A DNA stretch of 64,000 nucleotides from Kiritimatiellia bacterium (lineage in GTDB: Bacteria > Verrucomicrobiota > Kiritimatiellia > RFP12 > JBMNHG01), in contig JBMNHG010000002.1 of assembly GCA_050950285.1 (NCBI GenBank), positions 248,296-312,295 of the forward strand. Reading direction: 5' to 3'. Below, in pieces: positions 1-26,900 of this stretch; position 1 is the first letter of the stretch, and the number at the start of each line of letters is the position of its first letter. Below the pieces are notes generated by a model. It was not told the DNA's origin. It was given only the letters and a program-made list of their open reading frames with translations, and did not search any database. The position numbers and the translations under genes were made by a program.

Positions 1-2
1 CC

Positions 3-1469: not shown

Positions 1470-1526
1470 ACGCCCCCCCTCCCCCGGCAAAAACGGCGCG
1501 CCGCGAAATTCGCGGCGTGCCGCCGC

Positions 1527-4982: not shown

Positions 4983-4988
4983 CCCTTC

Positions 4989-5046
4989 CCGTCGGCCGGA
5001 AACCGCAAGCCGGAAAACAAAATCACACCCGACGGCCTCTTTTTTG
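4989..5046 (+). terminator. Putative intrinsic terminator after the rluA-family gene
   Basis: GC stem ccgtcgg(4989-4995)/ccgacgg(5029-5035) with an inner ccgg..ccgg pairing, followed by a T6 run at 5040-5045. The loop is long, so confidence is moderate. Confidence 0.45.
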
Positions 5047-5104
5047 CTATGGTGTACATAACCCGGCGCGCCATTTCCCGCGCCCAACGATAAGGATCCC
5101 GCCC

Positions 5105-5974: not shown

Positions 5975-6058
5975 GTTTCCCTTCCGACTCGCCGCCGCTC
6001 CGTGTCCAACTTCGACCGCACCTCCCCCACCCCGCCGCACGGGACCCAAAGACCGCCC

Positions 6059-6406: not shown

Positions 6407-6415
6407 GGTTCCGCC

Positions 6416-7531
6416 ATGTCCGCACCCATCGACGTCGCCGCCTACATCTGGCCCTCCTACACGGGGGACGAGCCCCGCGCCCGCGCCTTCTGGCCCGAAG
6501 GCATGGGCGAATGGGAAACCGTGCGCGCCATGCGCCCGCGCTTCCCCGGCCACGCCTGGCCCCGCAAGCCGCTCTGGGGCTACTGCAACGAAGCCAACCC
6601 CGATGTCATGCGGATGCAGATCGATGCCGCCGCCGACCACGGGGTCGACGTCTTCCTCTACGACTGGTACTGGTTCGACGGCCGCCCCTTCCTCGAGCAA
6701 TGCCTCGGCGAAGGGTTCCTGAAGGCTCCGAACAACTCCCGCATGCGCTTCTACCTGATGTGGGCGAACCACGACGCGACCCTGTGCTGGGACCGCCGGC
6801 TCGCCCACACGGACGGCCAGACCGTGGTGTGGCAGGGCGCCGTGGATCGCCGCCAGTTCGAGGCGGTGGCGCGCCGGTTGATCGACCGGTTCTTCACCCA
6901 TCCGCTCTACTACACGATCGACGGATGTCCCGTCTTCATGATCTACGACCTCGCGAACCTCGTGAAGGGGCTCGGCGGCGTGGAGGCCGCCCGCGCCGCG
7001 CTCGACGACTTCCGCGCCGGATGCGTGGAGGCCGGCCTTCCCGGACTCCACCTCCAGCTCGCCTACTGGAACGAGTGGGCCACCCGGCAGGGCGGCGGCG
7101 ACGGCGTCAAAATCCCAACCGGCGCCGCCCTCGTGGACGCGCTCGGATTCGACAGCCTGTCGCACTACCAGTTCTGCCACGCCACGGACATCGACCGCCC
7201 CTACCTCGACGTCCTCGCCGACATGCGCAACGAATGGGACCGTCTCGACCGCGAGTACCGGGCGGTCTACTTCCCGCACATCTCCGTGGGCTGGGATCCC
7301 TCGCCTCGCTTCCAGGACGCCGTGACGGGCCACCTTCGCGACACGACGCCCGCGAACATCCGCAAGGGTTTCGAGATGGCCCGCGACTACCTCGACGCCC
7401 ATCCGGAACGCCACCGCCTGGTCACCGTGAACAGTTGGAACGAGTGGACTGAAACCAGCTATCTGCAACCCGACGACCTGAACGGCTACGGATACCTTGA
7501 AGCGCTCCGGGACGTCTTCGGAAAGGCCTGA
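6416..7531 (+). CDS. WbsX-like / GH99-like glycosyl enzyme
   Basis: Pattern (Y.WP.......FWPEGMGEWETV...P.FPGH..PR.PLWGY.....DVM..QID.AADHGVDVFLYDWYWF) typical of the Glyco_tran_WbsX family. Confidence 0.6.
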   Translation: MSAPIDVAAYIWPSYTGDEPRARAFWPEGMGEWETVRAMRPRFPGHAWPRKPLWGYCNEANPDVMRMQIDAAADHGVDVFLYDWYWFDGRPFLEQCLGEGFLKAPNNSRMRFYLMWANHDATLCWDRRLAHTDGQTVVWQGAVDRRQFEAVARRLIDRFFTHPLYYTIDGCPVFMIYDLANLVKGLGGVEAARAALDDFRAGCVEAGLPGLHLQLAYWNEWATRQGGGDGVKIPTGAALVDALGFDSLSHYQFCHATDIDRPYLDVLADMRNEWDRLDREYRAVYFPHISVGWDPSPRFQDAVTGHLRDTTPANIRKGFEMARDYLDAHPERHRLVTVNSWNEWTETSYLQPDDLNGYGYLEALRDVFGKA

Positions 7532-7588
7532 GCCGACCTCCTGCGGCTCCCGCGCCGGCAAATCGCGGCACGCCGCCGACCGCCCCCC

Positions 7589-9043
7589 ATGAGACTTCTC
7601 CGAACAATCCGCGTGATGGTCGACCGGAAGCTCCAGATCCGGATGCTTCCGCCGGGGCCGCGGCGTTTCCTCGCCTTCAACTTCATCAACGTCCTCTCCT
7701 GGACCTCGCTCCTCGGCACGGTGCTCGTGCTCCATGCGACGGCGCTGGGCATCTCCAGCGCGGCCATCGGCGCACTGAACTCCATCCTCAACTTCGCCTG
7801 CATCCTCGGCATCTTCACGAAAACCCTCGCCGAGCGGATCGGTTCGAAGCGCCTCCTGCTGGGCGGATGGACGCTCCGCAACCTGATGGCGGCCCCCATC
7901 GTCCTCGTCCCGCTGGTGCGCCGGTTCTTCGGGTTCATGCCTGCCGCGGTGCTGCTCTTCGCCTGCATCACCCTCTTCTGCATCGCACGCGCCCTCTCGA
8001 ACATCGCGTGGGCGAGCTGGCTCCACGAAATCGTCCCCCCGAAGCACCTCGGGCGCTACTACACCGTGGAGTCGGTGATGACGCGCGTGCTCATGCTCCT
8101 CTGCGGCGTCGTCTGCTTCCTCGTCTTCTCGGGCTCGTCGTCCACGCCGTCCCCCGACAATCCGGACTACGCCGAGCTCTGGCGCTTCGCCGCGATTTCA
8201 GGCTTCGGCGTGACCATGGGGCTCGTCTCCACCCGCGTGCTCCGCAACGTGCCGGGCGGCATGCCGCCCGAGCCCGACGCACGGGGCGAAGTCCCCCACG
8301 CCAGCTTCCGCGCGGTGCTCCACGACCGGATGTTCCTCTCCTTCCTCCTCTGCTCGGCCTTCTTCTCCAGCCTCTACACCGGCGCGGCCGTGATGATTCC
8401 GCTCCTCCTGCGCCTGCACTTCAAACTGGGCACCGGAACCGTGCTGCTGCTCACGAGCCTCGGCAACCTTCTCGCCGTGGCCACCACCCCCCGCTGGCGC
8501 CGCGTGGCCGACCGCCACGGCAGCCCGGTGACGATGCTTGCCAACGGAGTGCTCTTCGCCATGTGCATGGGCGTCTTCGGACTCCTCGCGTATCTCCGGC
8601 CCGCGCGCGCCCCCCTCTGGATCCTCTTCCCCATCTGTGCGCTCGTGCCGGTGGCGGACAGCGGAAACGCCATGGCCACCTCCCGAGGCTTCATGCTGCG
8701 CGTGACCGCCGAGAACCGCCACGCCTGCAACGCCATCTGGAATGCGGGAACCCAAACCCTCTGCGGCACGGCGTCCATCGCGACCGGCCTGCTGTTGCGC
8801 GGCGGCGATGCGGGCATGCACCTCCGCTACGCCTCCGTGGCGTGGTGCTTCGCGCTCCTGATGCTGGCGACGGGATGGTTCGCCCTGCGGGTGCGAGTCC
8901 CCGAAGGCGACGCGCAACCCGGTCCCAGCCCCATCTACAACCCGGCCCACCCGCTCCAGAGCATCTACCGGATCATCCCCTACGTGCTCGCCCCCCGGCG
9001 CGGCGATCCCCTTGCCAGCGAACGTGTCGACCACGTGCGCTGA
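7589..9043 (+). CDS. MFS-type transporter
   Basis: About 12 predicted TM helices in two 6-helix halves. Substrate unknown. Confidence 0.55.
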   Translation: MRLLRTIRVMVDRKLQIRMLPPGPRRFLAFNFINVLSWTSLLGTVLVLHATALGISSAAIGALNSILNFACILGIFTKTLAERIGSKRLLLGGWTLRNLMAAPIVLVPLVRRFFGFMPAAVLLFACITLFCIARALSNIAWASWLHEIVPPKHLGRYYTVESVMTRVLMLLCGVVCFLVFSGSSSTPSPDNPDYAELWRFAAISGFGVTMGLVSTRVLRNVPGGMPPEPDARGEVPHASFRAVLHDRMFLSFLLCSAFFSSLYTGAAVMIPLLLRLHFKLGTGTVLLLTSLGNLLAVATTPRWRRVADRHGSPVTMLANGVLFAMCMGVFGLLAYLRPARAPLWILFPICALVPVADSGNAMATSRGFMLRVTAENRHACNAIWNAGTQTLCGTASIATGLLLRGGDAGMHLRYASVAWCFALLMLATGWFALRVRVPEGDAQPGPSPIYNPAHPLQSIYRIIPYVLAPRRGDPLASERVDHVR

Positions 9044-9054
9044 ACCGCGCCGAA

Positions 9055-10379
9055 TCATCCTTGCGATTCGCTGCTTCGAGCCGCGGGTTTCCCCGCAAGG
9101 CCCGCCGCGGAACCCATGAGGAGCCCGTACGCAAGCACCAGCTCGCCGTCGGCGAAGTTGTATTCCACGAGGCCGTTCAGGACAAGTGCGGCGAGCATCC
9201 CGCCCAATGCCGGCGCCAGCCCCCGCGATTCCGGCGGACGTCCCCGGTCGATGCGCCGCACGTCGCGAAAGGCGAGCACCAGCCACGCCAGGTAGATCGC
9301 CAGCCCCGCCCAGCCGGTCGATGTGGCCATTTCGACGGGGTTGGAGTGAAGGTGGTAGCGCCGCGGCTCCACGTGCCGGACGTTGGCCTTCCCGGCGAAC
9401 TCGCGCATCCGCTCGGGCGTCATCGCGCGGAACCCGATGCCCCCGGGATGCTCGCGCATCACGGCGGGCGCGACCTTCGTCCACATCACGACGCGGCCGC
9501 CGTTCTGCGGATCGAACTCGTCGAAAAGCGACGCCATGCGGACCCTCGTCGCCGGGATTGCGGCCACGACGACCGCCAGCGCCACAAGCCCCAGAAGCCC
9601 CTTCTTCCAGGGAATCCGCCGGAAGCAAAGGAAAACCAGCACCGCCAGCGCCGCCAGCCAAGAGCTGCGCTTGAAGGTGAGCAAAAGCGCAAGGGAGGTC
9701 AGCCCGGCCAGAATCGGCCATACCCGCAACGCCACGGGCCCTCCGACGGGGAAGCGCAAGCGGAAGGCCCAGTGGCCGCCGGCGGTCTTGTCCCGGGAAA
9801 GCACGATGGCCACCGCTCCGACGAGGCCGGCCATCAACCGCTGCGAATCGCCCAGCTCCCCCCGGTCGAAGAGCACAAAAAGGAACGAGGGGCGGGCGAG
9901 CGAGTGGCTGAGACCGGCGAAGGTGCGCTCGGACATCGACCCGCGGGCGAACGCCTGCTCGAGCAAGGGGGCGAACGCCTCGCTGGCGGCGTTCACCTCT
10001 TCCGTTACCGCCAGGGCGACGGGAATGTTGCAACAGAGCACGCGCAGGGCGAGCACCCCCGTTCCAGCACGTAGGCGCGAACGAGGCTCCACGCCTTCTC
10101 GCGACTGTCCACGATGCTCGCCGCCAGCGGAATGCCGAGATACCAGACCAATTTCGAAAGACGCGACAACCCCCGGTCGGGATCCAGCCCATGCCAGGTG
10201 GCGCCGAATGCCACGGCAACGAACAGCACCCACATCCACGCAACAGGCGGGAAGCGCAACGTCCGCCGGCCCTTGGCGACGTCCACGCCCAGCGAGATGG
10301 CCGTCAGCACCAGCAATGCCCGCCCGAGCGGCAACGAGAAGCCTGCGGCAAACGCCGCCCCATCAGAATCGAAAACGTC
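9055..10379 (-). CDS. O-antigen ligase (Wzy_C) family membrane protein, frameshifted
   Basis: Wzy_C-like region (HSNPVEMA...NGLVEYNF) in ORF 9055..10239. The N-terminal TM helices lie in the overlapping ORF 10005..10661 in another frame. The two frames join at a G5 run near 10055-10062 (..RAYVLE | GVLALRVLCCNIPV..). The start near 10379 is approximate. Confidence 0.6.
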
Positions 10380-10496
10380 CTGTTCGCAAACGGAATCATC
10401 GCCGCCATCATATCCATCCGCCCATTCTCCGTCAAACACCGTCTCGCATGGACAGCGGGCCGTTGCCAACTGTCCGGAAGAGTGTTTCCTGTATTC

Positions 10497-10570
10497 GGCT
10501 GGCGACAGGAGCGAGCGCCTGCTCGTCCCTTGTCTCCCGACCCTTGACGCCCCCCCGTCGCCAGCCGATT
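10497..10570. repeat. Near-palindromic GC-rich element in the divergent promoter region; related copy at 37795-37850
   Basis: Termini ggctggcgacagg...ccgtcgccagcc are inverted. Internal blocks gagcgcctgctcg and gggggcgtcaagggtcggga (reverse-complemented here) recur at 37795-37850. Confidence 0.5.
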
Positions 10571-10676
10571 GCGTGTTTCCTTTGGATTCTCCTTGGCAAA
10601 AAGGGTATACTCTCCTTTTATTTTCATGACCGCGTACAAGATGCGGCATTTTGCGTTTCATTCGAGAGAACCCACC

Positions 10677-11369
10677 ATGCTGGAACAGTTGAAAGAAACG
10701 GTTTGCACCGGAAACAAGCGGTTGGTCGCCGCCGGGCTCGTCGTCCTCACCTGGGGGAATGTGTCAGGGTTCGACGAGGAAAGCGGGCTTGTCGTCATCA
10801 AGCCGAGCGGCGTGGACTACGATGCGATGGAACCCGGGCACATGGTGGTGGTGGATCTCGATGGGCAGGTGGTCGAAGGATCCCTCCGCCCCTCGTCGGA
10901 CACGCCCACGCATCTGGAGCTCTACCGCTCCTTCAAGGGCATCCGCGGCGTGGTCCACACGCACAGCGCCGAAGCGACGGCCTGGGCGCAGGCACGCCGG
11001 CAGATTCCGCGTTACGGCACCACCCACGCCGACGGGTGCGACGGCCCCGTCCCGCTTACGCGGGAGCTGACGGAGCAGGAGGTCGAGGATGCCTACGAAC
11101 TCAACACGGGCAAGGTGATTGTGGAACGTTTTGCGGACCTCGACCCGCTTGCCGTGCCGTATGTGCTGGTCACGGGCCACGCGATGTTCTCTTGGGGGAC
11201 CTCCGTGGCGAAGGCGGTGGACAACGCCATCGCGCTTGAATCCATCGCCAGGATGGCCCGCCTTACCGAGACCGTCGCCGCGAACGAACCCATCCACGAA
11301 CTCTCCGCCCATATCGCCCGCAAGCACTATGAGCGGAAGCATGGCCCCCGTGCCTACTACGGGCAATAG
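10677..11369 (+). CDS. araD: L-ribulose-5-phosphate 4-epimerase (class II aldolase family)
   Basis: 231-aa product with ..LTWGNVSG...VIKPSGVDYD.M.....VVDLDG..VEG...PSSDTPTH..LY..F..I.GVVHTHS..AT.WAQ. Confidence 0.85.
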   Translation: MLEQLKETVCTGNKRLVAAGLVVLTWGNVSGFDEESGLVVIKPSGVDYDAMEPGHMVVVDLDGQVVEGSLRPSSDTPTHLELYRSFKGIRGVVHTHSAEATAWAQARRQIPRYGTTHADGCDGPVPLTRELTEQEVEDAYELNTGKVIVERFADLDPLAVPYVLVTGHAMFSWGTSVAKAVDNAIALESIARMARLTETVAANEPIHELSAHIARKHYERKHGPRAYYGQ

Positions 11370-11422
11370 GAACCCCCATCTTCAAAAGGCGTAGCCGCAA
11401 GGCCATTCGACGAACCCCCGGA

Positions 11423-12355
11423 TTGAAAATCCCCCTCATGGACAAACCCACGCTCGTGATTCTTGCCGCCGGAATGGGCAGCCGCTTCGGAGGCATCAAG
11501 CAGATGACCCCCGTCGGGCCCTCCGGCGAAATCCTGATGGACTATTCGGTTTTCGACGCCCTCCGCGCCGGATTTGGAAAGGCCGTGTTCGTGATCCGAC
11601 GCGACTTCGAAGAGGACTTCCGCCAGCAAGTCGGCATCCGCTACGAAAAGCGCGTCGACGTGGCGTACGCCTTCCAGTCGCTCGACGACCTCCCGCCCGG
11701 ATGCACCATCCCCGAAGGCCGCGTCAAACCCTGGGGAACGGCCCACGCCACCCGCGCCGCCCGCGAGGCGGTGGGAGATGCGCCCTTCGCCGTCATCAAC
11801 GCGGACGACTTCTACGGACGCGACGCCTTTTCCCGGATCGGCTCCTTCCTCGCTTCCGACCCTTCCCCCGCGGAATACGCGATGGCGGGCTTCCGCCTTC
11901 GCGAAACCCTCTCCGACAGCGGCACCGTCTCCCGGGGTGTCTGCGAGGTTTCCCCCAACGGCTTCCTGGCCGGCTTGCGCGAAGTCGTCCGGCTCGCCCG
12001 CACCGCCGACGGTTCCGCCGTGGAGAACCTCGAAAATCCCGACGCCCCGGAACGCCTCTCCGGGGACGAATTCGTTTCGATGAACCTGTGGGGATTCCCC
12101 GCCGCCTTTCTCGACCGCATCGAAGAGCGTTTCCCCGGCTGGATGCACAAGCACTCGGGCGACCCCAAGGCCGAGTGGTACCTCCCCTCCGTGGTGGCCG
12201 AACTCGTCGCCGAAGGCCGCGCCACCGTGCGCGTGCTGCCCACCACCTCCTCCTGGTTCGGCGTGACCTATCCGGACGACCGCCCCCGCGTGGCCTCCGC
12301 CCTCGCCCGCCTCGTCGAACAGGGCGTCTACCCCCGCGATCTCTTCGGGCGATAG
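11423..12355 (+). CDS. Sugar-phosphate nucleotidyltransferase family protein
   Basis: N-terminal [11 protein letters not shown] nucleotide-binding loop, followed by KPWGTAHA. Confidence 0.65.
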
Positions 12356-12458
12356 GCCGCACGCCCTCCACGCGTGCGGCATCCGAACGCGAAGCGGCGT
12401 CAAAGGGGAGGATTTCATCTTTGACACCTCCCCCCGGATACTGCACACTGTTTTTTTC

Positions 12459-13338
12459 ATGAAATTAACCAGTCCGTCCCAGATTTCCGCCTGGTGTGCG
12501 GCGCATGGTTTCAAGCCGAACCGCATGCTGGGGCAGAATTTCCTCATCGACCAGAACACCCTCGATTTTCTGGTGGATGCGGCGGAACTGCGTCCGGGAA
12601 GCCGCGTGCTGGAGGTGGGGCCGGGATTGGGGGTGGTCACCGAAGCCCTGATCGAGCGTGGCGCCTGCGTCACGGCCGTGGAAAAAGATCCGGTGCTCGC
12701 CGAGCGCCTTCCCGAGGCCCTTGCCGAGGTTCCGGAGGGCCGCCTTCGCGTGATTCCGGGCGACATGCTCGAACAGGATCTCGACGCCCTGCTTGCCCCT
12801 CCCGGATTCGACGTCTGCGTGTCGAACCTCCCCTACTCTTGCGGAACGCGGATTCTGATGGACCTGGCGCGTCATCCGCTCGCACCCTCCCTTCTGGTGG
12901 TGACCGTGCAGCTCGAGGTGGCCGAGCGTTTCGCGGCGCCTCCGCGCCATCCGGCCCGCGGACTCGCCAGCGTCTGGCTGCAACGCCTGTACGACATCGA
13001 AATCGCCCGCGTCGTGAAACCCACCTGCTTCTGGCCGCGACCGGAAGTCTCCTCCGCCATCGTGCGCCTGCGACGGCATGGCCGCGAGCCGCTGACCCCC
13101 GTCGCAACGGAACGTTTCGAATCGCTCGTGCGCCTCGGCTTCACCCATCGCCGCAAGCAGCTGGCAACAACCTTGCGTCATGCGCCTGCGCCGTTTACCA
13201 TGTCTCCCGAACACACCGCCGCCTTCCTTTCTTCCCTCGGACTCTCGACCCTCGCGTCCGTCCCGAAGAGCTTACCGTGGCCGAGTGGCGGTCCCTGGCC
13301 GCCGAAAGCCTTATTCACTCCCTCCCGAACCCGTATGA
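12459..13338 (+). CDS. rsmA: 16S rRNA (adenine1518/1519-N6)-dimethyltransferase RsmA/KsgA (two apparent frameshifts near the 3' end)
   Basis: [11 protein letters not shown]-binding [12 protein letters not shown] and NLPY motifs. The C-terminal tail (..[17 protein letters not shown]..) continues in a second frame, and the stop lies in a third frame, overlapping the ahcY ATG (ATGA at 13335-13338). Confidence 0.8.
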
Positions 13339-14730
13339 ACGACTTCAAGATCAAAGACCCCTCCCTCGCCCCGCTCGGCCGCAAACTCATCGCAATGGAA
13401 GAGCACGAGATGCCGGGCCTGATGGCCTGCCGGGCCAAATACGGCCCCGTCAAGCCCCTCGCCGGCGCCCGCGTGACGGGCTCGCTCCACATGACGGTCG
13501 AAACCGCCATTCTCATCGAAACCCTGCGCGAACTGGGTGCCGATGTGCGCTGGGCCTCGTGCAACATCTTCTCCACGAACGACTCCGCCGCAGCCGCCAT
13601 CGCCGCTGCGGGCGTGCCGGTGTTCGCCTGGAAGGGCGAGTCCATTCCCGAGTACTGGTGGTGCACGAAACAGGCAATGACCTGGCCCGATGGCACCGGT
13701 CCCGACCTGATCGTGGACGACGGCGGAGACGCCACGCTCCTCCTCCACCTCGGCACCGCTGCGGAGACCGATCCTTCGCGTCTCGACCATCCCGCGTCCG
13801 AAGAGGAAGCCGCCCTCTTCGCCCTCGTCCGCGAGACCCTCGCCTCGGATCCCCGCTGGTTCTCGAAGACCGCCGCCCGCGTGCGCGGCGTCTCCGAAGA
13901 AACCACCACGGGCGTCCATCGCCTCTACCAGCTGGAAGCCGAAAAATCGCTCCTCTTCCCCGCCATCAACGTGAACGACTCCGTGACCAAGTCGAAGTTC
14001 GACAACATCTATGGATGCCGGGAATCCCTCGTTGACGGCCTGAAGCGGGCGATGGACATCATGCTCGCCGGCAAGAACGCGCTCGTCTGCGGCTACGGCG
14101 ACGTCGGCAAAGGCTGCGCCGAAGCCCTCCGCGGACAACCACTGCCGCGTTCGCGTGACCGAAATCGACCCCATCTGCGCACTCCAGGCGTGCATGGCCG
14201 GCTACGCCGTCACCACCGTGCAGGACGCCCTCCCCTGGGCCGATATCTTCGTGACCTGCACCGGCAACGTCGGAATCATCACCGCCGACGACATGGCGAA
14301 GATGCGCGATCAGGCGATCATCTGCAACATCGGCCACTTCGACAACGAAATCCGCGTGGCGGATCTCCTCGCCTGGCCCGGCATCGTCCGCACGACCATC
14401 AAGCCGCAGGTGGACATGTTCACCTTCCCCGACGGGCACTCGATCTACCTGCTCGCGGAAGGCCGCCTGGTGAACCTCGGGTGCGCCACGGGCCATTCCG
14501 CCTTCGTGATGAGCACCTCGTTCACGAACCAGATCCTCGCCCAGATCAAGCTCTGGCAGGAGGACATGCCCGTGGGCGTGACCCGCCTTCCCAAGGAACT
14601 CGACGAAGAGGTCGCCAGACTCCACCTCGCCAAGCTTGGCGCGAAGCTCACCACGCTCACGCCCGCCCAGGCCGACTACATCGGCGTGAAACCCGAAGGC
14701 CCCTACAAGTCCGATTTTTACCGTTACTGA
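13335..14730 (+). CDS. ahcY: Adenosylhomocysteinase (one apparent frameshift ~14130-14155)
   Basis: N-terminus [31 protein letters not shown]..., NAD-binding [15 protein letters not shown], and the C-terminal half in ORF 14155..14730 ending ..KSDFYRY. The frames join with a 1-nt offset at ggacaaccactgccgcgttcgcgtgacc. Confidence 0.85.
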
Positions 14731-14780
14731 TCCATCGTTCTCCTGTATCCTGTATCCCCATCACGAAAGGAACCTCCCCC

Positions 14781-15101
14781 ATGCCCGCCGAACTCACCGC
14801 CTCCACCTTCCAAGACGCCATCTCCCGGGGCGTCGTCCTCGTCGACTTCTGGGCCCCCTGGTGCGGCCCCTGCAGGATGCAGGGCCCCATCCTCGAACAG
14901 GTCGCCCCCGCCTTCGAAGGCCGCGCCACGATCGCCAAGCTCAACATCGACGATCCTTCGACCCAGAACATCGCGAAAGACCTCGGCATCCGCAGCATCC
15001 CGACCCTCGTCCTCTTCAAGGACGGCGCAGAGGTGGAGCGCTTCATCGGCCTCACCCGCGCCGACGCCCTCCAGGCGGCGATCACGTCCGCGCTGGCATG
15101 A
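14781..15101 (+). CDS. trxA: Thioredoxin
   Basis: WAPWCGPCR active site in a 106-aa product. Confidence 0.85.
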
Positions 15102-15143
15102 TCCGTCCGTAGGACAACAGCCCTCCGTTCTCCAGCCAGCCCC

Positions 15144-15935
15144 ATGCGCCATCGTCGTGCGATCGTCCGGGACCACCTCCCCCTGGAGGCGGGTTATCGC
15201 TGGCTGGAACTGGAGGCGCCGGAAATCGCCGCGGCGGCTCGTCCGGGCCAGTTCGTGCACCTCCGCGTGCCCGCGCTCGAAGCCTCCGCCCTGCGGCGCC
15301 CTTTCAGCATCTGCGACGTGCGCGGAACGCGGCTCTGCCTGCTCTACAAGGAGGTCGGACGCGGCACTGCCGCCATGGCTTCGTTGCGCGAGGGCGACGC
15401 GGTGGACCTGCTGGGTCCGCAAGGCAACGGATTCCCGCTGGAGTGCGGCGGCCGGACCCCCATCCTGCTTGGAGGCGGATACGGCGTCGCGCCGCTCTAT
15501 TTCCTCGCGCGCAGCTCCCGCGCCACGGCGTGCTGATGACGGGCGCGCGGACGGCAGGCGACATCCTCCTGAGCGGACGCTTCGCCGAACTCGGGCTGGG
15601 AAGAACGCTTCGCCACGATGGATGGCTCGCTCGGCGAAACCGGACTCGTCACCGTCCTCCTCGACGCCTGGCTGAAGCCCGCCCCCGCGAACCCGCCGTG
15701 TTCTACGCCTGCGGGCCCGACGGCATGCTCCGCGCCGTGGGGGATCGCGCCATCGCCCGCGAGGAGCCGACCGAAGCCTGGCTGTCGCTCGACAAGCACA
15801 TGGTCTGCGGCGTAGGCGCCTGTCTCGCCTGTGTCCAGGAACTGCGGTCCCGGGATGGCACGACCCGCCTCGGCGCGCGTCTGCAAAGACGGCCCCGTCT
15901 TCGAATCCCGCGAAATCGTCTGGAGCCATCCATGA
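15144..15935 (+). CDS. pyrK: Dihydroorotate dehydrogenase electron-transfer subunit PyrK (several apparent frameshifts)
   Basis: FAD/NAD-binding N-terminus (RPGQFVHLRVP...RRPFSI..), GGGYGVAPLYFLA, and the C-terminal 2Fe-2S CGVGACLACV block. The true end (...[19 protein letters not shown]) lies in another frame, with its stop overlapping the pyrD ATG. At least 3 frame changes occur between 15515 and 15880. Confidence 0.7.
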
Positions 15936-16844
15936 GCGACGACGCCCCCGACCTGCGCGTGAACCTTGGCGGACTCGCCATGGCGAACCCCGTGACCGTG
16001 GCTTCGGGGACCTTCGGCTACGGCCTGGAATATGCGGAACTCGTCGATGTCCGCCGCCTGGGCGCCATTACCGTGAAGGGCATCCGCCTGGCACCCTGGC
16101 CGGGCAATCCCCTCCCCCGCCACGTCGAAGTGCGCGGCGGCATGGTGAATGCCATCGGATTGCAGGGGCCGGGCGTGAAGGGCTTCATCGAGCACCATCT
16201 CCCGCCGCTCCGGGCGCTGGGTGTCCCCGTGATCGTGAACATCTGGGGCGACTCGGCGGACGAATACGCGGAAGTCGCAAGACGCCTCTCCGACGCGGAA
16301 GGCGTCTCCGCCCTCGAGATGAACCTCTCCTGCCCCAACGTCAAGGCCGGCGGCGCGGCCTTCGGGACCGATCCGGCCACGATGGCGGCGGTCGTCTCCG
16401 CCACGCGCCCCGCCACGCGCCTCCCCTCTTCGTGAAGCTCGCCCCGAACGTGCCGTCCCATTGCGCCATTCGCCCGTGCGGCCGCGGACGCCGGCGCGGA
16501 CGCGCTGTCGCTGATCAACACGGTTCCGGCGATGGTGATCGACATCGAGGCCCGCCGCCCCGTGCTGGCGAACCGCATCGGCGGCCTCTCCGGTCCCGCC
16601 ATCCACCCATCGCGGTGAAGCATGTCTACGACGCCGCCCAGGCCGTGAAGACGCCCATTCTCGCCATGGAGGCGTCTTCTGCGCCCGCGACGCCATCGAA
16701 TTCCTCCTCGCCGGCGCCACCGCTGTCGCGGTCGGCACCGCGACTTTCATCGATCCAACCACCACGCTCCAGGTCATCGACGGCATCCGGGACTACATGG
16801 TTCGCCACCGCATCCCTTCGATGCGCGACTTCCCGCGCATTTGA
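15932..16844 (+). CDS. pyrD: Dihydroorotate dehydrogenase catalytic subunit PyrD (class 1B), several apparent frameshifts in 3' half
   Basis: [31 protein letters not shown]....GAITVKG......GNP.PR......[12 protein letters not shown]. The C-terminal part (..[19 protein letters not shown].. and ..MRDFPRI*) is scattered over three frames between 16430 and 16844. Confidence 0.75.
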
Positions 16845-19800
16845 GCAGGCGGAATCCGGACGTCGCGACCAATCGGCAACGGAGACTGCGCCATGAACTG
16901 ACCCTCCATGCCCCGCTCGGCGTCGATTGGACGCCACAGCATCTGTTCCTCGCCCTTCCGGGCGTCGAACCCGGCCTGCCGCTGGACCTCGAAATCGACG
17001 GCATCCCCGCCCCCTTCCAGTACACGGGCGCACGGGCGCCGCGATGGCGCGGAAATCTGCGTCAAACTCGGCTTCGGGAAAGAGGAAACGCATGGGCTTT
17101 CCTTCGCGCCCGCCGCATCCTGCGGAACGGACCTCGCCCGGCGGCAGCTCTGGGAAGGCGATGGCCGCGATGCGCCTCCGGCCGAAATCGGAGCGGCCGG
17201 ACGCACCCTCCTCGTCTCCCCCGGCGCACCGTTCGGCGGATTCGCCGGCCACGCCATGCGCTGCGTCGTGGACGCTCCCCGTCCGCTCGCCCGCGCCTCG
17301 CTTGCGCAGACCTGCGACGGACCGCTCTTCACCGACTACACGCTCGCGCTCCGCTATGGCGAGGACGGCCGCTACACGGTCGACTACCGCTGCTTCAAGT
17401 CGGAGCCGTATGTCGAAATCCGCGAGACCTTTTCGCTCGGACCGGGCGCGGAGATGCGCTTGGACGCTCAATCCCGAAAGCGCTTCACGCACATCCTGAG
17501 CCGCGACAGTTTCGAGGGCGAACGCACGCCCCACGGTCGAAACCCCTCGGCGAAGAGCATCCTCGGGACGTGCTCTGCCGTCTCCAGATGCCCGTCCTCT
17601 CCGAGTACTTCATCCCGAACAACCGCGGCTGGTTCGCGTTCTTCGACCAGCGGAATCCCGCCGCCGGCATGGTGGGTATTCTGGGGCTCCACGGCGCACG
17701 GTGGGAGGAGCCCGTCGCCGCCATGCCCGAACTCTTCGACGCCGGCAAAACGGTCCTCTGGCGCGCCTCGCTCGCAAGCGGACGCCGGTGCTGGCTGCTG
17801 TATGCCGGCCCCCTCGAAACCTCCTACCGCATCCTGACGCCGACAAGCCGGCGGAGGTCCCGAACCCCGCTTCGTCTTCCACCGTCTCCATGCCGAATTC
17901 AACGCGTTGCGCCTCGACGGACACCTCGACCTCGACGGCTCCGCCTGCTACGACGCCTCCGCCGCGAACGCCCCCGCCATCTTCGGGCCTGGCGACTTCC
18001 ATGCCGACGCCCGTCGACGCGTCCAGGCGCTCGAGTGCCTGCGTCGCATGGGCGAGCCCCCCTCCCCCGCCTTCGCCTACCTCCTCCAGCCATCCGACGA
18101 CGCCGCGCGCCTCCTGCGCGACGACATCGCCTCCCGGTTCGCCCGATGGGTGCGCCAGTTCCAAGGCTACCGAACGGGCGAAAACGACTACGCGAAAAAC
18201 GTCATCGGCTTCTCGCGCCGCCTCCGCGGCCTGCTGCTGTCCTACGAACTCCTGCGCCGCGACGGCGCGCTGTCCGATTCGGACGTCCGGCGATTCAACG
18301 CTTGCTTCGTTTTCGCGGCGCGCCGCATTTTGGACGAAGGCCGTTGGCCCCACTCCCGTTCGTGGAAGCATCCGGACCATCCGGAATCACCCGCGACTTC
18401 TACGCCTACGGTGGCGAGCACAAGCCCGACCGGCTCGTCTGGACGAACAGCCTTCCAAACTTCCAAAGCGACCCCATGGCCGCCCTCGCCCACCTCGCCG
18501 CGCTTTTCCCGACCCACCCCGACGCCGCCATTGGCTGCGCTTCGCGCTCGAGGACATCGACCGCCAGCTCGACGCCTACTGCGGGAACAGCGGCGCATGG
18601 AGGAATCCATCAACTACACGCTGTATACCCTCTCGTACCTCGTGATCACCTTCCGCGCCCTCAAAGGCCGCACCGGACGCGACTTCTTCCACGACCCGCG
18701 GATGCGCCGCCTCATCGGCTGGTTGTGCCGCTTCTTCGGACCGTTTGACAAGCGATTCGGCGTCGCCACGTGGCCCGCGATCGGGAACGCCGTCCTTCCG
18801 CAGATCCAGGCCGAGCCCTCCTCGCCTTCGCCGGCGAACTCGCCGGAGACGACCCGCTCCGCCGCGACTGCATCGCGCTCTGGCAACGCGTCGCCGGACA
18901 TGTCCGCCCGGCGGAGCATGCGCCGCTCCTGCTCGCCGCCATGGCGCCGGACGTGCCGGCGAGCCGCTTCCCCTGGCCCCCCTCGCCAGCGAGGTGATGG
19001 ACGAAGTGGGCGTCTCGATGCGCGATGGCTTCGGAACCCCGCGGGAAAGCTTCTCTTCCAGAAAATCGGATTCGCCAAGGATCACTACGAGGACGACGAA
19101 AGCGCCTTCAACTGGTATGCCAAGGGGACGCCTTTCTGCATGGACTACGGCACCTACACCGGCGACGTCGCCGTGGGTGCCGCCCACAACCTCGTCGAAA
19201 TCGCCGAGGGCGACCCCCTCCGGCGCGGCTACCTCGCGGACCACTTCTTCTCCCCGCACGTGGACTACACCCGTTGCGAGATCCCCGTCACCCTCAAGCT
19301 CCTCTGGGGCCGCATCCGTCCTTTCGAGGAAATCGACGCCGCCCACGTCTCCACCCCCCGCGAACGCACGCCCTATTTCTACATCGGCGACCGCAACCCC
19401 GTGGGTCCCGAAGTGCTGGAAAGTGCGCATGCTCCTCTTCGTGAAGCCGGACTACGTCGTGCTCTTCGACCGCGTCTTCGGGCGCGTTCCCCATCGCTGG
19501 AACCTCCATTTCACCGGCGGCCCCATCGAACGGAAGGGGAATCTGCTCGCCTCCCGGGGCCGCTTCGACCTGGACCTGCTCGCCTGCGTGCGGCATCCGG
19601 CGGAGTTTTCACTGGAAACCGGCGAGCTCGTTCCAAGGGTCCATCCGGGTTGGCGGCGGGGAGGAGGCGAGGCGACGCCACGCCCAGCACTTCGTCCGCA
19701 TCGCGAACAAGGAAGACGGGCTCTATCGTGCGCTCCTCTTCGCAAAAGAACGCGACCGCGACGTCCGGATCGAGCCGGCGGGCGAAACAAGGATTCCGCG

Positions 19801-20078
19801 TGATACGACGCCCGACTACGCCGACCTCGTCTTCCTCAACGATGACTACGTCGAAGAACAGGTCGGCAACGTCCGTCTTCCGCGGGCGAGCCGGCTGGTT
19901 GCGCCGCCACCGCGATGGCCGGATCGAATCGCAAGCCCCTTCCGGCAGCTTCCCCGAACCGATGCGTTCCTCCAGCCGTCCGTGAACCGTCCGGCGCGAC
20001 AGCGGCGTGCCGCGGCAGGATTCGCGCGGGATTCGCGGGCGGCCAGGAATTCTTATGGCAGACTTCACGCGGTTTTGA
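16841..20078 (+). pseudogene. Heparinase II/III-like polysaccharide lyase family gene, reading frame broken at least 6 times
   Basis: Coherent protein segments of one ~1000-aa Hepar_II_III-like protein alternate between the ORFs 16841.., 16908.. and 17907... Examples are ..YTLALRYGEDGRYTVDYRCFKSEPYVEIRETF.., ..FHADARRRVQALECLRRMGE.. and ..FNWYAKGTPFCMDYGTYTGDVAVGAAHNLVEI... It may be a genuine pseudogene or dense assembly indels. Confidence 0.5.
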
Positions 20079-20167
20079 TAAAGTGAGCCTGCTTTTGTCT
20101 CAACCTCAAAGCGTTCCTGCTTCGAAATCTACGGCGGGAGCGACCAATCCCATCGGAGTTCTATTTC

Positions 20168-20931
20168 ATGAGCGGTCATAGCAAGTGGGCTAAAATCAAG
20201 CACGCAAAGGCGGGTGCCGACGCGAAGCGTGGCAAGGTTTTCAGCAAGTTCGCCAAGGAAATCATGATCCTCGCCCAAGGCTGGCGGCGGCGATCCCGCC
20301 ACCAACGCGGCGCTGCGCAACATGCTGGCCAAGGCCAAGTCGGTCAACATGCCGAACGACAACATCGAACGCGCCATCAAGAAAGGCACGGGCGAAGGCG
20401 CTTCGGTCAACTTCGAGGAAATCACCTATGAAGGCTATGCGGCCGGCGGGATCGGCCTCGTGGTGAAGGTTCTCACCGAAAACAAGAACCGTTCCGCGGC
20501 GGAAGTCGGCAACATCTTCAAGAAGAACAATTCCGAATTCGCCAAGATCGGCTCCGTCTCGCGCAACTTCGAGCGCAAGGGAAAGATCGAGATCGACGCC
20601 GAAAGCCACGGCGAAGACGAGGTGATGACCGTCGCCCTCGAGGCAGGCGCCGACGACATGGTGACGGAAGACGGGGAGTTCATCATCTACACCTCGCAGC
20701 AGGCGTTCGCCGACGTGTGCGACGCCCTCGCCCAGGCGAACATCGAAACCGACTCCGCCGAAATCGGCCTGATTCCCACCGTCACCAAGACCATCGACGA
20801 CATCGACGTGGCCAAGCAGGTGCAGCGCTTCATCGACGCGCTCGAGGGACTACGACGACGTCCAGGACGTCTACAGCGACATGGTTCTCGACCCCGCCGT
20901 GGCAGACGCCCTCGAGGCGGAAGAGGAATAG
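20168..20931 (+). CDS. yebC: YebC/PmpR-family transcriptional regulator (two apparent frameshifts)
   Basis: [36 protein letters not shown], then the frame shifts at ~20280 into ..[35 protein letters not shown]... The C-terminal ..[25 protein letters not shown] sits in a third frame after ~20850. Confidence 0.8.
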
Positions 20932-20999
20932 TGCAGGGTCTTCCCGGGAATCCTGCGGCCTCCACCGCCCCTTCGGGCGCGCCTCCGGGCGCGCCCGTC

Positions 21000-21501
21000 G
21001 TGTATCGGGTGCTCGGCATCGACACCTCGCTCCGGTCCAGCGGGCTGGCCGTGGTGGAGGCCGAAGGGCAGCGGTTCCGCGCCCTTTGCTACGGGCTGGT
21101 GAAGAATCCGCCGGCACGTCGGCTTTCGGCCTGTCTGGGGCATATCCGGGAGGACATCGCCGGTCTGGTCGAGGAATTCCATCCCGATGCGGCGGCGATC
21201 GAAGGCATCTTCTACGCGAAAAACGTCCGTACCGCCATGATTCTCTGCCATGCGGCGAGGTGTCGCGATCGACACCTGTTCGGCTGCGGGGCTCCCCATC
21301 TACGAATACGAGCCGCGGCGCGTCAAGCAGGCGGTGCTTGGCCATGGCAATGCGACGAAGGCGCAGATCCAGCGGATGGTCGCCACCACGCTCGGCCTGC
21401 CGAAGATTCCGCCCGAAGACGCCGCCGACGCCCTGGCCATCGCCCTCACCCATCTCCACAACCGGAACCGGATTGCCCTGGGCTTGGACAAGCCGCTCTA
21501 G
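21000..21501 (+). CDS. ruvC: Crossover junction endodeoxyribonuclease RuvC (one apparent frameshift ~21255)
   Basis: VLGIDTSLRSSGLAVVEAEGQR....YG, then after the shift ..GVAIDTCSAAGLPIYEYEPRRVKQAVLGHGNATKAQIQRMV...PEDAADALAIALTH. A GTG start near 21000-21009 is inferred. Confidence 0.75.
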
Positions 21502-21586
21502 GCAACTCCGGCGGAATCTCGGACACCATGAAGCCCTCCCCTCCCGAACTGCGCGCGAACGACAAGGTATTCCGGGTGGTCGACGC

Positions 21587-22318
21587 ATGAAACTCCTGTT
21601 CATCCGGCACGCCGATCCCGACTACGCCATCGACTCGCTTACCCCCAAGGGTTGGCGCGAGGCGGAGATGCTTGCCGGATTCCTGTCGGAAATCGACGTG
21701 CTCGCCTATTACGTCTCGCCGCTGGGGCGGGCGAAAGACACCGCCTCCCTCACGCTCGCCCGCACGGGGCGCACGGCGACGGAGTGCCCCTGGCTGCGCG
21801 AGTTCACCCCGGCCATCCGGCGTCCCGGCTCCCCCGGCATCGCGCCGGTTCCCTGGGACTGGCTGCCGCAGGATTGGACGGCGGACGAACGGTTCTACCG
21901 GCGCGACCTCTGGGCCGAGCCGGAAAGAATGCGCGAAGGCGGCGTGCGCGAGGCGGCCGACGAAGTCGCACGGGAATTCGATGCGCTGCTTGAAACCCAT
22001 GGCTACCGCCGCGACGGCAACCTCTACCGTGCGCTGGCGCCCAGCAATGCGACGCTCGTCTTCTTCTGCCATTTCGGCGTCGAATGCCTGTTGCTCGGCC
22101 ATTTGCTGGGCCTCTCCCCCATGGTGCTCTGGCATGCCACGTGCGCGGCGCCATCCTCGATCACGACGGTCGCAACCGAAGAGCGGCGCGAAGGCATCGC
22201 ATGCTTCCGCATGCTCTCCTTCGGCGCCACCCCCCACCTCGCGATCCACGGCGAGCCGCCCGCCTTCGCCGCGCGATTCCGCGAATGCCATGCGAACGAT
22301 GCGGAGCGCCGCGATTGA
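21587..22318 (+). CDS. Histidine phosphatase (phosphoglycerate-mutase-like) family protein
   Basis: N-terminal LLFIRHADPDYA with the RH catalytic dipeptide; 243 aa. Confidence 0.6.
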   Translation: MKLLFIRHADPDYAIDSLTPKGWREAEMLAGFLSEIDVLAYYVSPLGRAKDTASLTLARTGRTATECPWLREFTPAIRRPGSPGIAPVPWDWLPQDWTADERFYRRDLWAEPERMREGGVREAADEVAREFDALLETHGYRRDGNLYRALAPSNATLVFFCHFGVECLLLGHLLGLSPMVLWHATCAAPSSITTVATEERREGIACFRMLSFGATPHLAIHGEPPAFAARFRECHANDAERRD

Positions 22319-22362
22319 CCCGGCAGCGAACCCTCACCCCCTCCCCCTGGACTGCCATCCCC

Positions 22363-23280
22363 ATGCGAACGACATCGACCCCCACACTGGAAGACTTCCG
22401 GGCAAGCCGGGAAACCTTGGTCGGAATCGACTCCGACGGGTGCGTTTTCGATACGATGACCGTGAAGCAATGCGTCCATTTCCACCCGCTGATCGTTTCG
22501 TCCTGGCACTTGGAAGCCATTGGGAAGGAAGTCCGGGAGACGGCCGAATTCCTCAACCTTCGCTCCTGCTGGCGCGGCCGCAACCGCTTCACGAACCTTC
22601 TCCTCACCTTCGAAATGCTGGCGCGCCGCGCCGATGTCGCGGGGAAGGCGCCGCTCCCGCGCCTCGATTCCCTGAGAGCCTACTGCGAGTCGGGGGTGCC
22701 GCTGGGCAACCCGTCGCTGGAAGAGGCCGTCCGGGCGACGGACGACGCCGAACTGCGGCGGACGCTGGAATGGAGTCTTGCGGTGAACGAGGATATCGCG
22801 CATCGCATGCGCCCCATCCCGCCCTTCCGGTGGGCGGTCGAAGCCCTGCGCCGCATGCAGGGGCACAGCGACACGCTGGTCGTCTCCCAGACCCCCTTCG
22901 AAGCGCTCTCCCGCGAATGGAGGCAACACGGCATCGACCACCTTGTCGCCGCGATCGCGGGGCAGGAGGCGGGCTCGAAGACGACCCAGCTGCTCGAAGC
23001 GGCGGCGGGCCGCTACAAGCCGGGACGCATGCTCATGATCGGCGATGCGCCCGGCGATCGCGCCGCGGCCCGGGAGGCGGGCGCCCTGTTCTATCCCATC
23101 CTTCCCGGACGCGAGGAGGAATCCTGGCGCCTCTTCTGCGAGCGCGACTACCCCCGCTTCCTGGCGGGAGAACTCGATGCCGCGACGCTCGACGCGCTCC
23201 AGGCGGAGTTCGACGCCCTCCTCCCCGACACGCCGCCCTGGGAGGAAACACGGCCGACAACGCCGGATGACGCAGGCTGA
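22363..23280 (+). CDS. HAD-like hydrolase (tentative)
   Basis: DSDGCVFDT resembles HAD motif I (DxDxT/V). Weak overall, with no second motif confidently assigned. Confidence 0.4.
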   Translation: MRTTSTPTLEDFRASRETLVGIDSDGCVFDTMTVKQCVHFHPLIVSSWHLEAIGKEVRETAEFLNLRSCWRGRNRFTNLLLTFEMLARRADVAGKAPLPRLDSLRAYCESGVPLGNPSLEEAVRATDDAELRRTLEWSLAVNEDIAHRMRPIPPFRWAVEALRRMQGHSDTLVVSQTPFEALSREWRQHGIDHLVAAIAGQEAGSKTTQLLEAAAGRYKPGRMLMIGDAPGDRAAAREAGALFYPILPGREEESWRLFCERDYPRFLAGELDAATLDALQAEFDALLPDTPPWEETRPTTPDDAG

Positions 23281-23286
23281 GCGCGC

Positions 23287-23907
23287 CTAGGCGAGGAAGG
23301 GATTGAAGGCCCGCTCGCGGGCGATGGTGGTGCGGGGCCCATGGCCGGGGCAGACGACCACCTCGCCGGGAAGCGTCATCAGCCGTGCCAGCGAGTCCTG
23401 CTGCCGGCGCATGTCGCCGCCGGGAAGGTCCGTGCGCCCCACCGATCCCGCAAAGAGCGTGTCGCCGGCGAGCAAGACCTTCTCCCCGCCCAGGTAGTAG
23501 CACACCGAGCCGGGCGAGTGTCCCGGCGTATGGAGCACCGCAATCTCCAGGCCGCCGACGGAGAGCGCGTCCCCGTCGTTCGCGGCGCGAAGACCGGCCG
23601 GCACACCGGGGACGCGCAGGTAGGGCGGGATGCGGTTGACGGGCGTGAAGGCCCACTCGGCATCGGCGGGATGGAGGTAGACGGGGAGTTCGGGCGTCGC
23701 GGCGAGCAGGCCGTCCAAGGCGGCGATGTGGTCGATGTGGCCGTGCGTGAGCAGCGCGCCCGCGAGGCGGATGCCCAGCGATCGGGCGGTTTCAAGGATG
23801 TGGTCGGCCTCGTCGCCCGGATCCACCACCAGCGCCTGGGCGGGATCCTTCCAGAGCAGTGCGCAGTTCTCCTCGAACGCGCCGACCGTGAGCCACCGGA
23901 TGTTCAT
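23287..23907 (-). CDS. MBL-fold metallo-hydrolase (GloB-like)
   Basis: THGHIDHI zinc-binding motif and HTPGHSPGS. The ATG overlaps the stop of the upstream giant gene (ATGA). Confidence 0.8.
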   Translation of the reverse strand: MNIRWLTVGAFEENCALLWKDPAQALVVDPGDEADHILETARSLGIRLAGALLTHGHIDHIAALDGLLAATPELPVYLHPADAEWAFTPVNRIPPYLRVPGVPAGLRAANDGDALSVGGLEIAVLHTPGHSPGSVCYYLGGEKVLLAGDTLFAGSVGRTDLPGGDMRRQQDSLARLMTLPGEVVVCPGHGPRTTIARERAFNPFLA

Positions 23908-26900
23908 GGTTCCGTCCTTTCCTTCCGTGCGTCGAGATCCACGAAGGTCGTCCCGTCCTTGCGCCCGAGGAAAAGCCCGTAGCTGCCTTGGAAGCGGACG
24001 CCTCCGCGCGCGGTGTCGTCCCAGTCCAGTTCCGAACGGGAGAAGAAGAGGCGGTCGTCGATGCCGTCGCCCTTCACGTGCACGCCCACGATGCGTCCGC
24101 CGGCGTCCCGGAGCGCTTCGGCGGAGAGCGGCGCCGCGCCGGCGACGAGGGGGCGGAGCACGGCGGCAATGCCCTTCGGCGAATCGCCCGCGAGGCGAAG
24201 GTGGCGCATGGTGAAGGTCGGCGCGCCGTGGAACTGCAGGATGGCGTCCTGGCGGATTTCCTCCTCGTCGAAGAGCTGGTCCGGCAGCAACACCTGCAGA
24301 TCGGTGCCGTAGCGGCCCTTGAACCGGTAGTCGCCGGGGCCGGCGACGGCGTGTTCGTCGGAGACGGCCTGGACGTTCCAGTGGGTCTTGACGCCGGCAG
24401 GCAGGCGGAGCTCGTCGTGCAGCACCACGTAGCCGGCGTCCTTCACCCAGCACACCGAACGGGAGTCGGCGGGATTCGGCTCGTTGAAGCGGTCGAAGGC
24501 CACTTGGACGAGGAAGTCGTCGCAGGCGTCGCTGAGGAAGACGGGGTCCTTCGCGGTAAGGGCCTTGGGATGGACGCCCTGGCAGAAGTCGGCTTCGGGC
24601 AGGCTGGCGAAGCGTTCGACGTGGCCGGGGGCCAGGGGGGACTGCGAATCATGGAAGGCGAGCGTGGTGTGGCGCCAGGTTTCGCCCGCCTCGCCGCCGT
24701 CGTAGACCAGCGGCTTGCCGTCCGCGAAGAGGAGGAGGCTGCCTTCGGTGTTGTGGTAGCGATAGCCGCCGGGGCCTTGCTTGAACAGGAGGTAGAACTC
24801 CTGCGGGGTGTCGAAGCGTCCGCGGAAAACGGCGCCGAAGCCTTCGAGGCGGCGGCTGGCGAGCGGCTGCGGCGGGGAGACGGGTTCGAGATCGCTCGCG
24901 TCGAGCGATGCGAACAGGAGCGGCAGGTTGCCGAACCCCAACCCGACGGAACCGCCCGTGCGGTAGGCCCAGAGGAGCTGGTCGGCGAGGACGGGGTCGC
25001 TCTCCCGCAGGACCTGGCCCATCAAGGCGAAATGCTCGGGGACGGCGGTGCCGAGTCCGGCGTGGTCGCCGATGGGCGGCAGGCGGCGCGAGGCGGGCTC
25101 GGCGCGGTAGGCGGCATCGTCGAGCGGGCGCGTCATGGCTTCGTCGGAGGTGGGGAAGGCGGGCGTAAGGAGCAAGATGCCCCACCGCATGAGGTCGGGG
25201 AGGCGCTCGATCGACGCAGGGTCCAGGCGGCCGTCGCGCCACAGGTGGTAGAGCAGGTTGATGCGGCATTTGAGGGCCTGGAGGTAGTAGCAGGCGGGGT
25301 TCTCGTACCACTTGCCGCTGCCGGGCGTGCAGTAGGCGTCGAGGGCCACGCGCGTCCGTTCCGTGGCGTGGTCGGCCATGGCGTCTGCGTCGGGTTCGCC
25401 GGCGAAGACGAGGCCCACGGTGCCCACGACGTCCACGCGATCCGCCTCGAAATTGGCGTTGCGCGCGCCGAACCCCCAGTTCATGAAGTCCTTCTCGCAG
25501 TACATGTGGCCCATCAGCAGGAGGAAGCGGCGGACGAGGCGCTCCTCCTGTGCGGTGAAGCACCCGCTGGCGGCGATCAGGTCGTAATCCTCGGCCCAGG
25601 CGGTGATGGGGCGCGCGCCGACGGGCGAGTACATGTCGGAATGGTCGCGTCCCAGAAGGGTCATGCGCGCTCGGATCCGCGCGACGCCCACCAGTTCGAG
25701 CTTCTTGCGCCATGCGACCAGCGGATCGCCGTCCACCGCGAAGCGAAGGCCCGTGGCGGGGCCGTGCACCTTCCCGGAGCAGATGCGCTTCCAGGATTCG
25801 GCGAAGGCCGGGTCGAAGCGCTTTGCGCGCAACGCGCGAAGTTCGGCCCTGCGGGCGACCACGCGGGGACGCTCCGCGGCATCCTGGACGTCGAGGTTCC
25901 AGCGGGCGAAATCATCGAGGCGCGGGGAGCCGAACTTGTGGTGCGAACGCGCAAGCTCCTTGTCGGGGCCGTCGTTCGCCGCGAAGGAAGAGGCCAGCAA
26001 CCCCCACTGGCGCTCGCCGTCGAAGAAGGCGAAGTGGAAGGCGGCATCGCCTGCGGCGGACGTGCGGACGGTAATCATCGACACGGTCGAACCGATCATC
26101 TCGGGGTATGGCCAGTCGAGCTCGCGATTGCCGTCGATCGGGCCATGCGAGAGGCGTTCGAACTTGCGGTCGATCCACTCGCCGCGGCGGAGGGTGAAGA
26201 CGGCGATGTAGTCCTTCTCGTCGAGGCCGTCGGGGGTCATCGCATAGCCGAAGTCGCAGGTGGCGCGCCACCACATGACGGATTCCTGGAGGCGCGCGAG
26301 TTCGCGGTCGGCCGCATCGAGCGTGCGCCAGTGGGGCGACCCGTTTTCCGCGCCCCAGTAGGCATAGCCGCGCCCGCCGGAGAATTCGGGGAGCGAGAAG
26401 TCGAAGGCGCCCTCCAGATCCGGCGGCGGTGTTTCGCGGGCGAGGAGCGCCTCTTCGCCCTGGAGGAAGGCGAGGTCGAGGCGGAAGGGCGAGCCGTCCG
26501 AGAAGGCGAACTCGATGCGGAGGCGCGCGGCGAGCGGCCCTTGCCCGAGGATGGTGGTGCGCCGCGAGGCCACCGACACGCCTTGCGGAAGGACGAAGCG
26601 GCCGCGGCCGCGCCACACGCCATCCGCCGCCCGCACGGAAACGATCGGCGCGATGCCGTCGTCGCCCCGCGCTTCGCCCCAGGCGATGCGGAAGGCGGCG
26701 CGACCGGTGTCGACCACGGCGGTGCGGCCGTCGGCGTCGGGCGTGATCGCCAGCGACGGGAAGCCCCCCTGCGCGGCGGACGACAGTTCGCAGACCGAGG
26801 CGATGTCCGTGCCCAGGGTGGCGCAGTGCCCGACGGTTTCGTAGAGTCCGATCAAACGGTCCGAGCGGGCGGGCAGTTCGGGAAGACAGAGCACCTGGCC

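Follow-up and report, generated by a model that had tools for sequence, protein, structure and literature searches.

Extent of the frameshifted tract

The window analysed here, a stretch of 64,000 nucleotides of contig JBMNHG010000002.1 (GenBank assembly GCA_050950285.1) of a Kiritimatiellia bacterium, contains between ~10 and 21.5 kb a run of frameshifted genes, including ahcY, pyrD and ruvC, and raises the question of whether these genes are broken in the organism or in the assembly. The frameshifts are almost certainly consensus errors of a long-read metagenome assembly, the genes of the organism being intact; the frameshift tract is not a biological feature. The original prediction, made from the window itself, had likewise assigned the shifts to local consensus errors in the form of insertions and deletions (indels) rather than to biology, and this is supported by intact genes in at least eight other samples, by a 40:1 indel-to-substitution spectrum and by the nested error sets of two assemblies.

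Other contigs of the locus were retrieved by exact-protein look-up with the intact thioredoxin (window 14781-15098). They come from at least eight other samples: 3300061563 (Joint Genome Institute, JGI; contig L001), 3300062814 (L003), 3300064082, 3300060679, 3300060803, 3300060804, SRR31066179 (Logan; L004) and SRR31066037. Over the tract these contigs are mutually identical except for one single-nucleotide polymorphism in L005. Each position of the tract is covered by 3-11 independent contigs, which are concordant against the window. The tract is delimited as follows:

10064..21254, error tract, containing all 40 small indels and 1 substitution relative to L001, L003, L004 and others

Compared with the other assemblies, the window has lost a single base at 21 sites and gained sequence at 19 (one base at 17 of them, two bases at the other two), and 1 base is substituted; the net length change over the 40 indels is zero. 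In the alignment of L001 to the window, spanning 4781-25101, all 41 differences fall within 10064-21254, and no indel was found in 4781-10063 or 21255-25101. The density of indels within the tract peaks at 15.5-19.9 kb. A decayed duplicate copy was ruled out as the source of the tract, which is collinear with unique flanking genes in the order found in every other sample.

The frame pattern of the window was also reconstructed from its own codon usage, by a Viterbi segmentation with seven states (six frames and non-coding) and a model trained on its long open reading frames (ORFs). About 25 frame switches of the + strand were detected within 12348-21600; outside ~12-21.6 kb, the frame switches only where genes begin or end. 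Translation of the segments yielded pieces of rsmA, ahcY, a pyrK-like gene, pyrD, a large unknown protein, yebC and ruvC, and intact genes for a thioredoxin, an aldolase and an NTP-transferase lie among the broken pieces. The raw ORF lists of the window were uninformative because it is G+C-rich (0.63-0.71 across the first 34 kb), and plots of G+C content at third codon positions (GC3) made the frame changes visible with noise too high to separate the strands. The frameshift cluster predicted at ~10-21.5 kb is confirmed by both the alignment and the frame switches.

The flanks were covered by an outward walk with further exact-protein look-ups, by which independent contigs were obtained for 1-37967 and 41358-64000 (60.6 kb). 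In ~49 kb of comparable flank (1-10063, 21255-37967 and 41525-64000), no 1-2 base indel private to the window was found, against ~176 predicted from the tract rate of 3.6 per kb. The genes murC, trpS, hisB and the CotH gene, all located outside the tract, are intact, as had been claimed. In the flanks, the window differs from one sample or another by ~16 substitutions, which are ordinary population variation; the other flank differences are a 16-bp tandem duplication at 41438 and a single-base difference at 55515 private to a Logan contig. The clustering of indels is far beyond chance, and the problem is strictly local within the window, ~49 kb of the remainder being checkable and clean.

Composition of the indels

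The indels are of a uniform kind. All 21 deletions shorten runs of 2-5 identical bases, against a background in the tract of 48% of positions in runs of at least 2 and 52% outside runs, and 16 of the 19 insertions copy an adjacent base and lengthen a run. A single C or G is gained or lost in 34 of the 40 indels. These counts agree with the earlier observation that the shifts often lie in short G/C runs. The two-base insertions are CT at 13242 and AT at 19803, and the lone substitution is T>A at 17979, in a gene for a 1030-aa protein. Indels outnumber substitutions 40:1 inside the tract; outside it, ~16 substitutions stand against 2 indel-type events (Fisher p = 3e-10).

Genes of the tract

The genes of the tract, with intact protein lengths and with the differences of the window relative to the other assemblies, are listed below:

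9055..10417, - strand, Wzy_C/O-antigen-ligase-like gene, 454 aa when intact; 2 indels: missing C at 10064 and missing C at 10358
10626..11369, + strand, class II aldolase gene, intact in the window; the JGI contig described below has errors here
11438..12355, + strand, NTP-transferase gene, intact in the window
12459..13338, + strand, rsmA/ksgA (RrnaAD family), 292 aa when intact; 2 indels at the 3' end: inserted CT at 13242 and missing C at 13320
13335..14730, + strand, ahcY (S-adenosylhomocysteine hydrolase), 464 aa when intact; 1 indel: inserted G at 14133, in the NAD-binding domain
14781..15101, + strand, thioredoxin gene, intact; the exact-match handle for retrieving other assemblies
15144..15935, + strand, pyrK-like gene (electron-transfer subunit of dihydroorotate dehydrogenase B), 263 aa when intact; 4 indels: missing C at 15515, inserted G at 15593, missing G at 15674 and inserted G at 15872
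15932..16844, + strand, pyrD (DHO_dh family), 304 aa when intact; 4 indels: missing C at 16423, inserted C at 16457, missing C at 16606 and missing G at 16668
16874, spacer between pyrD and the gene for the 1030-aa protein; 1 intergenic indel: missing C
16893..19985, + strand, lyase-like gene for the 1030-aa protein; 23 indels and 1 substitution (T>A at 17979)
20168..20931, + strand, yebC, 253 aa when intact; 2 indels: inserted C at 20274 and inserted G at 20846
20931..21501, + strand, ruvC, 189 aa when intact; 1 indel: inserted G at 21254

Single intact ORFs for Wzy_C (454 aa), RrnaAD (292 aa), AdoHcyase (464 aa), DHODB_Fe-S_bind (263 aa), DHO_dh (304 aa), the 1030-aa protein, YebC (253 aa) and RuvC (189 aa) were found in L001, L003, L004 and L005-L008. 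Seven of these eight proteins match their Pfam family across all or nearly all of the profile, for example AdoHcyase at 1-299/299, DHO_dh at 2-291/291, RuvC at 1-148/148, RrnaAD at 2-256/263 and both domains of YebC. The original prediction had named eight genes as needing frame changes, and 1-23 indels were found in each of them relative to these ORFs. The shift it placed at ggacaaccactgccg, ~14135, corresponds essentially exactly to the inserted G at 14133. Its assignment of a shift to the G5 run at ~10058 was close, the true lesion being a missing C 6 nt away at 10064; the same gene has a second lesion at 10358. Due to the two indels of rsmA, the open frame of this gene continues into ahcY. 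An 880-aa open frame extends from the start of rsmA to the stop of the thioredoxin gene.

Programmed ribosomal frameshifting or transcriptional slippage, by which the shifted genes would be decoded correctly in vivo, would agree with the position of some shifts in short base runs and, as in known cases, with a full protein that needs a frame change. Known examples are the +1 site of prfB, the -1 site of dnaX and the transposases of the IS3 family; programmed sites are single, conserved across relatives and composed of a slippery motif with a stimulator. The tract, in contrast, contains 40 non-conserved sites of both signs, with gains and losses together numbering as many as 23 in a single gene and one shift in an intergenic spacer; other samples of the population have single ORFs, and homologues of the 1030-aa protein in related metagenome-assembled genomes (MAGs) align over nearly its full length. 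The probability of such decoding is next to nil.

The 1030-aa protein was searched for in species-representative genomes. Homologues with 51-62% identity cover near-full query length in 9 of 11 MAG loci of the Planctomycetes–Verrucomicrobia–Chlamydiae (PVC) group, the other two being cut by short contigs; these MAGs are labelled Verrucomicrobiota, Terrimicrobiaceae, Opitutaceae, Lentisphaeria, Victivallales or Planctomycetota. A near-identical genome was not found among the species-representative genomes scanned with this protein, which returned distant relatives only, and the host is an uncultured PVC-group bacterium without a species-representative genome. The label 'heparinase-like', given earlier to the gene, is weakly supported: no Pfam match was found for the protein at E<=0.001, while a weak precomputed match to DSE-like_N and a weak 97-residue match to alginate lyase structures (E=3e-5) suggest a faint resemblance to polysaccharide lyases or DSE-like proteins.

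A second faulty assembly of the same locus

The locus is also represented by a 147.5-kb JGI contig, Ga0534105_00962 of sample 3300053716 (loci L002, L021, L025 and L039), which is even more heavily affected. Relative to L001, it has 63 deletions, 34 insertions and 4 substitutions (97 indels to 4 substitutions). One of these differences lies at 6544, and the other 100 of 101 lie in the window-equivalent interval 9498-22379 (12.9 kb, 7.8 per kb); no difference was found in the 15.6 kb after 22379, and the edges of the tract are sharp. At least 12 genes are fragmented by the errors of the JGI contig, including the aldolase, NTP-transferase, histidine-phosphatase and HAD genes, which are intact in the window.

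The two sets of errors are nested. Of the 41 differences of the window, 40 are contained in the 101 of the JGI contig, including both dinucleotide insertions and the lone substitution, T>A; of the window differences, the JGI contig lacks just the C deletion at 10358. On this evidence, both appear to go back to one long-read stretch with poor support, of which the window would be a version after partial polishing. The differences of the JGI contig were removed from or retained in the window as follows:

Left third, 9.5-13.2 kb: 30 fixed in the window, 1 kept
Centre, 13.2-19.1 kb: 3 fixed, 31 kept
Right third, 19.1-22.4 kb, deletions: 24 fixed, 0 kept
Right third, 19.1-22.4 kb, insertions: 2 fixed, 8 kept
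Right third, 19.1-22.4 kb, substitutions: 2 fixed, 0 kept

Error sets that are nested, and a correction that treats deletions and insertions unequally, are characteristic of consensus calling and polishing, not of mutation.

Genuine gene decay, in which a sub-lineage of one sample would carry 40 indels and eight true pseudogenes, accords with the existence of the indels in the delivered sequence and with the recurrence of most of them in a second public contig. Adjacent frameshifted genes in large number are also seen in reductive genome evolution, as in Mycobacterium leprae and insect endosymbionts, where pseudogenes genuinely accumulate. In such decay, however, frameshifts are accompanied by substitutions, larger deletions and stop codons, and the lesions are dispersed over the genome, spare core genes and are shared by the lineage; none of these hallmarks holds for the tract. 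The 40:1 ratio contrasts with natural population variation, which is almost wholly composed of substitutions. The core housekeeping genes ahcY, pyrD/pyrK, ruvC, rsmA and yebC would be lost simultaneously, although the flanks are identical to those of contigs from other samples with intact genes. The lesions are limited to the window and a single related faulty contig, at least eight other samples being free of them; the edges of the tract are sharp and its length is typical of a single read; and neither the nested faulty versions (41 within 101) nor the asymmetry between deletions and insertions has a biological rationale. Gene decay is accordingly very improbable. A real molecule, from a cell lineage of one sample, with a ~12-kb patch resynthesised by an extremely indel-prone process, for instance error-prone repair synthesis after a break, is still less probable; such a process would have produced ~1% run-length indels with almost no substitutions, and the two assemblies would have captured variants of the molecule.

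Origin of the errors

Residual errors in long-read bacterial assemblies are mostly homopolymer-length indels, by which genes are fragmented, according to four reports (PMC8812927, Polypolish; PMC9262707, Sereika et al. 2022; PMC12007338, Kastor; PMC8574707, ARAMIS). The tract resembles such errors of bacterial and metagenome assemblies from Oxford Nanopore Technologies (ONT) or PacBio reads, which turn genes into apparent pseudogenes: common to both are one-base gains and losses in short runs, a near absence of substitutions, fragmented conserved genes, stepwise removal by polishing and absence from short-read-type assemblies of the organism. The excess of indels in the JGI contig (97:4) is consistent with this published profile, which does not identify a specific platform. 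Two features differ from the usual long-read errors. Many of the affected runs are just 2-3 bases long, and the errors are not genome-wide: a single sharply bounded tract of 11-13 kb contains them, with a clean contig around it, which suggests that read support was lost locally rather than that the platform is biased in general.

Consensus errors of this kind probably arose in the following way. A stretch of ~13 kb (window ~9.5-22.4 kb), a typical long-read length, would have been backed by one or very few single-molecule reads, and the consensus would have retained the homopolymer-length miscalls of that read, at ~0.8% in the public version with the least polishing. Both this contig and the window would derive from the same reads, presumably of a single-molecule long-read platform. 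Later consensus calling or polishing may have cleared ~60% of the errors and left the 40 indels of the window; additional read support or polishing at both ends would explain that the left part was cleaned nearly completely and the right part was cleaned of deletions.

A different artefact may be considered, namely context-specific systematic base-calling errors present genome-wide in a long-read draft, which short-read polishing would have removed everywhere but in the tract, because short reads failed there in coverage or mapping. The location of the errors in short G/C runs, the partial and regionally variable correction and the identical errors in two assemblies could be produced in this way too. 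However, the tract is non-repetitive and has a G+C content of 0.63-0.70, as in the flanks, which leaves no evident cause for a failure of short reads, and short-read-style assemblies of sibling samples span it without trouble; the shared non-homopolymer events (the CT and AT insertions and T>A) look like idiosyncrasies of individual reads. This explanation is unlikely, and it likewise makes the feature non-biological.

Several points weigh against the tract being a consensus error of one long-read stretch common to both assemblies. To the right of ~39.4-41.4 kb, the window and the JGI contig carry different, partly paralogous sequence, so polishing of that contig would not by itself yield the window; this divergence is consistent with a different path of the assembler through the repeat-rich area beside an insertion sequence. 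The spacing of the JGI contig's errors over the tract departs from perfect uniformity (Kolmogorov–Smirnov p = 0.02). Many errors lie in very short runs of 2-3 bases, which is less typical of a well-covered modern long-read consensus, although such errors agree with support by one read. The private version of the window around 10358 was not found among JGI metagenome contigs, and no record of the 880-aa fused ORF was returned by the exact-protein look-up, as was the case for the start variant of the 2088-aa CotH protein; a literature search for the sample accessions likewise returned nothing. The case was built from assembled contigs, from which low read support and the kind of platform are inferred, and it is solely the shared errors that link the window and its provenance to sample 3300053716.

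Annotation of the assembly as it stands would present eight genes, among them the core genes ahcY, pyrD and ruvC, as pseudogenes or as ORFs that are fused or split, and metabolic reconstruction, estimates of completeness and counts of pseudogenes from this genome would be biased. The public JGI contig contains ~100 such errors at the same place. The finding is of value only as a warning on data quality, for annotation and for databases.

Insertion sequence and other features of the window

A complete insertion sequence of 1716 bp was found at 37968-39683. It is bounded by perfect 20-bp terminal inverted repeats (GGGCGCATCTCCGTTTTGCT) and by a 9-bp target-site duplication (GTGGTGAGG) at 37959-37967 and 39684-39692, and has two genes, one for a 98-aa DUF6788 protein and one, at 37993-39249 on the - strand, for a 418-aa protein that matches UPF0236 faintly. 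At least eight other contigs hold copies, identical or nearly so, in different surroundings. In L043 the site is unoccupied, and the element marks the ends of short-read contigs.

The region to the right of the insertion sequence is variable. The segment 39693-41357 (~1.7 kb, G+C ~74%) is missing from L043, which holds 156 bp there, and the long JGI contig departs from the window right of ~41364. A paralogous domain is repeated at ~41.6-42.1, 44.8-45.2 and 47.3-47.6 kb. The interval 39693-41357, together with 41.6-47.6 kb, is a structurally variable, repeat-rich neighbourhood. The 16-bp unit TCCCGACATCACGCTC occurs twice in tandem at 41422-41453 and once in L043; removal of one copy fuses the ORFs 39801-41693 and 41356-43458 into an uninterrupted ORF of 1213 aa. 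Unlike the one-base errors, this duplication may be genuine and shift the frame, or may be a variant of the strain.

An island of low G+C content (0.51-0.58, against 0.65-0.70 elsewhere) extends over ~42000-50000. Its genes (326, 573, 225, 584, 258 and 358 aa) have no Pfam matches on record. The island is identical in several other samples and may have been acquired horizontally.

Contig L034 (Logan SRR31061296) has, at window-equivalent position 55515, one G fewer than the window and the contigs of other samples covering the site, and its CotH/LTD gene is consequently split into ORFs of 900 and 1172 aa. The loss of this G probably also arose in assembly, here of a different data set.

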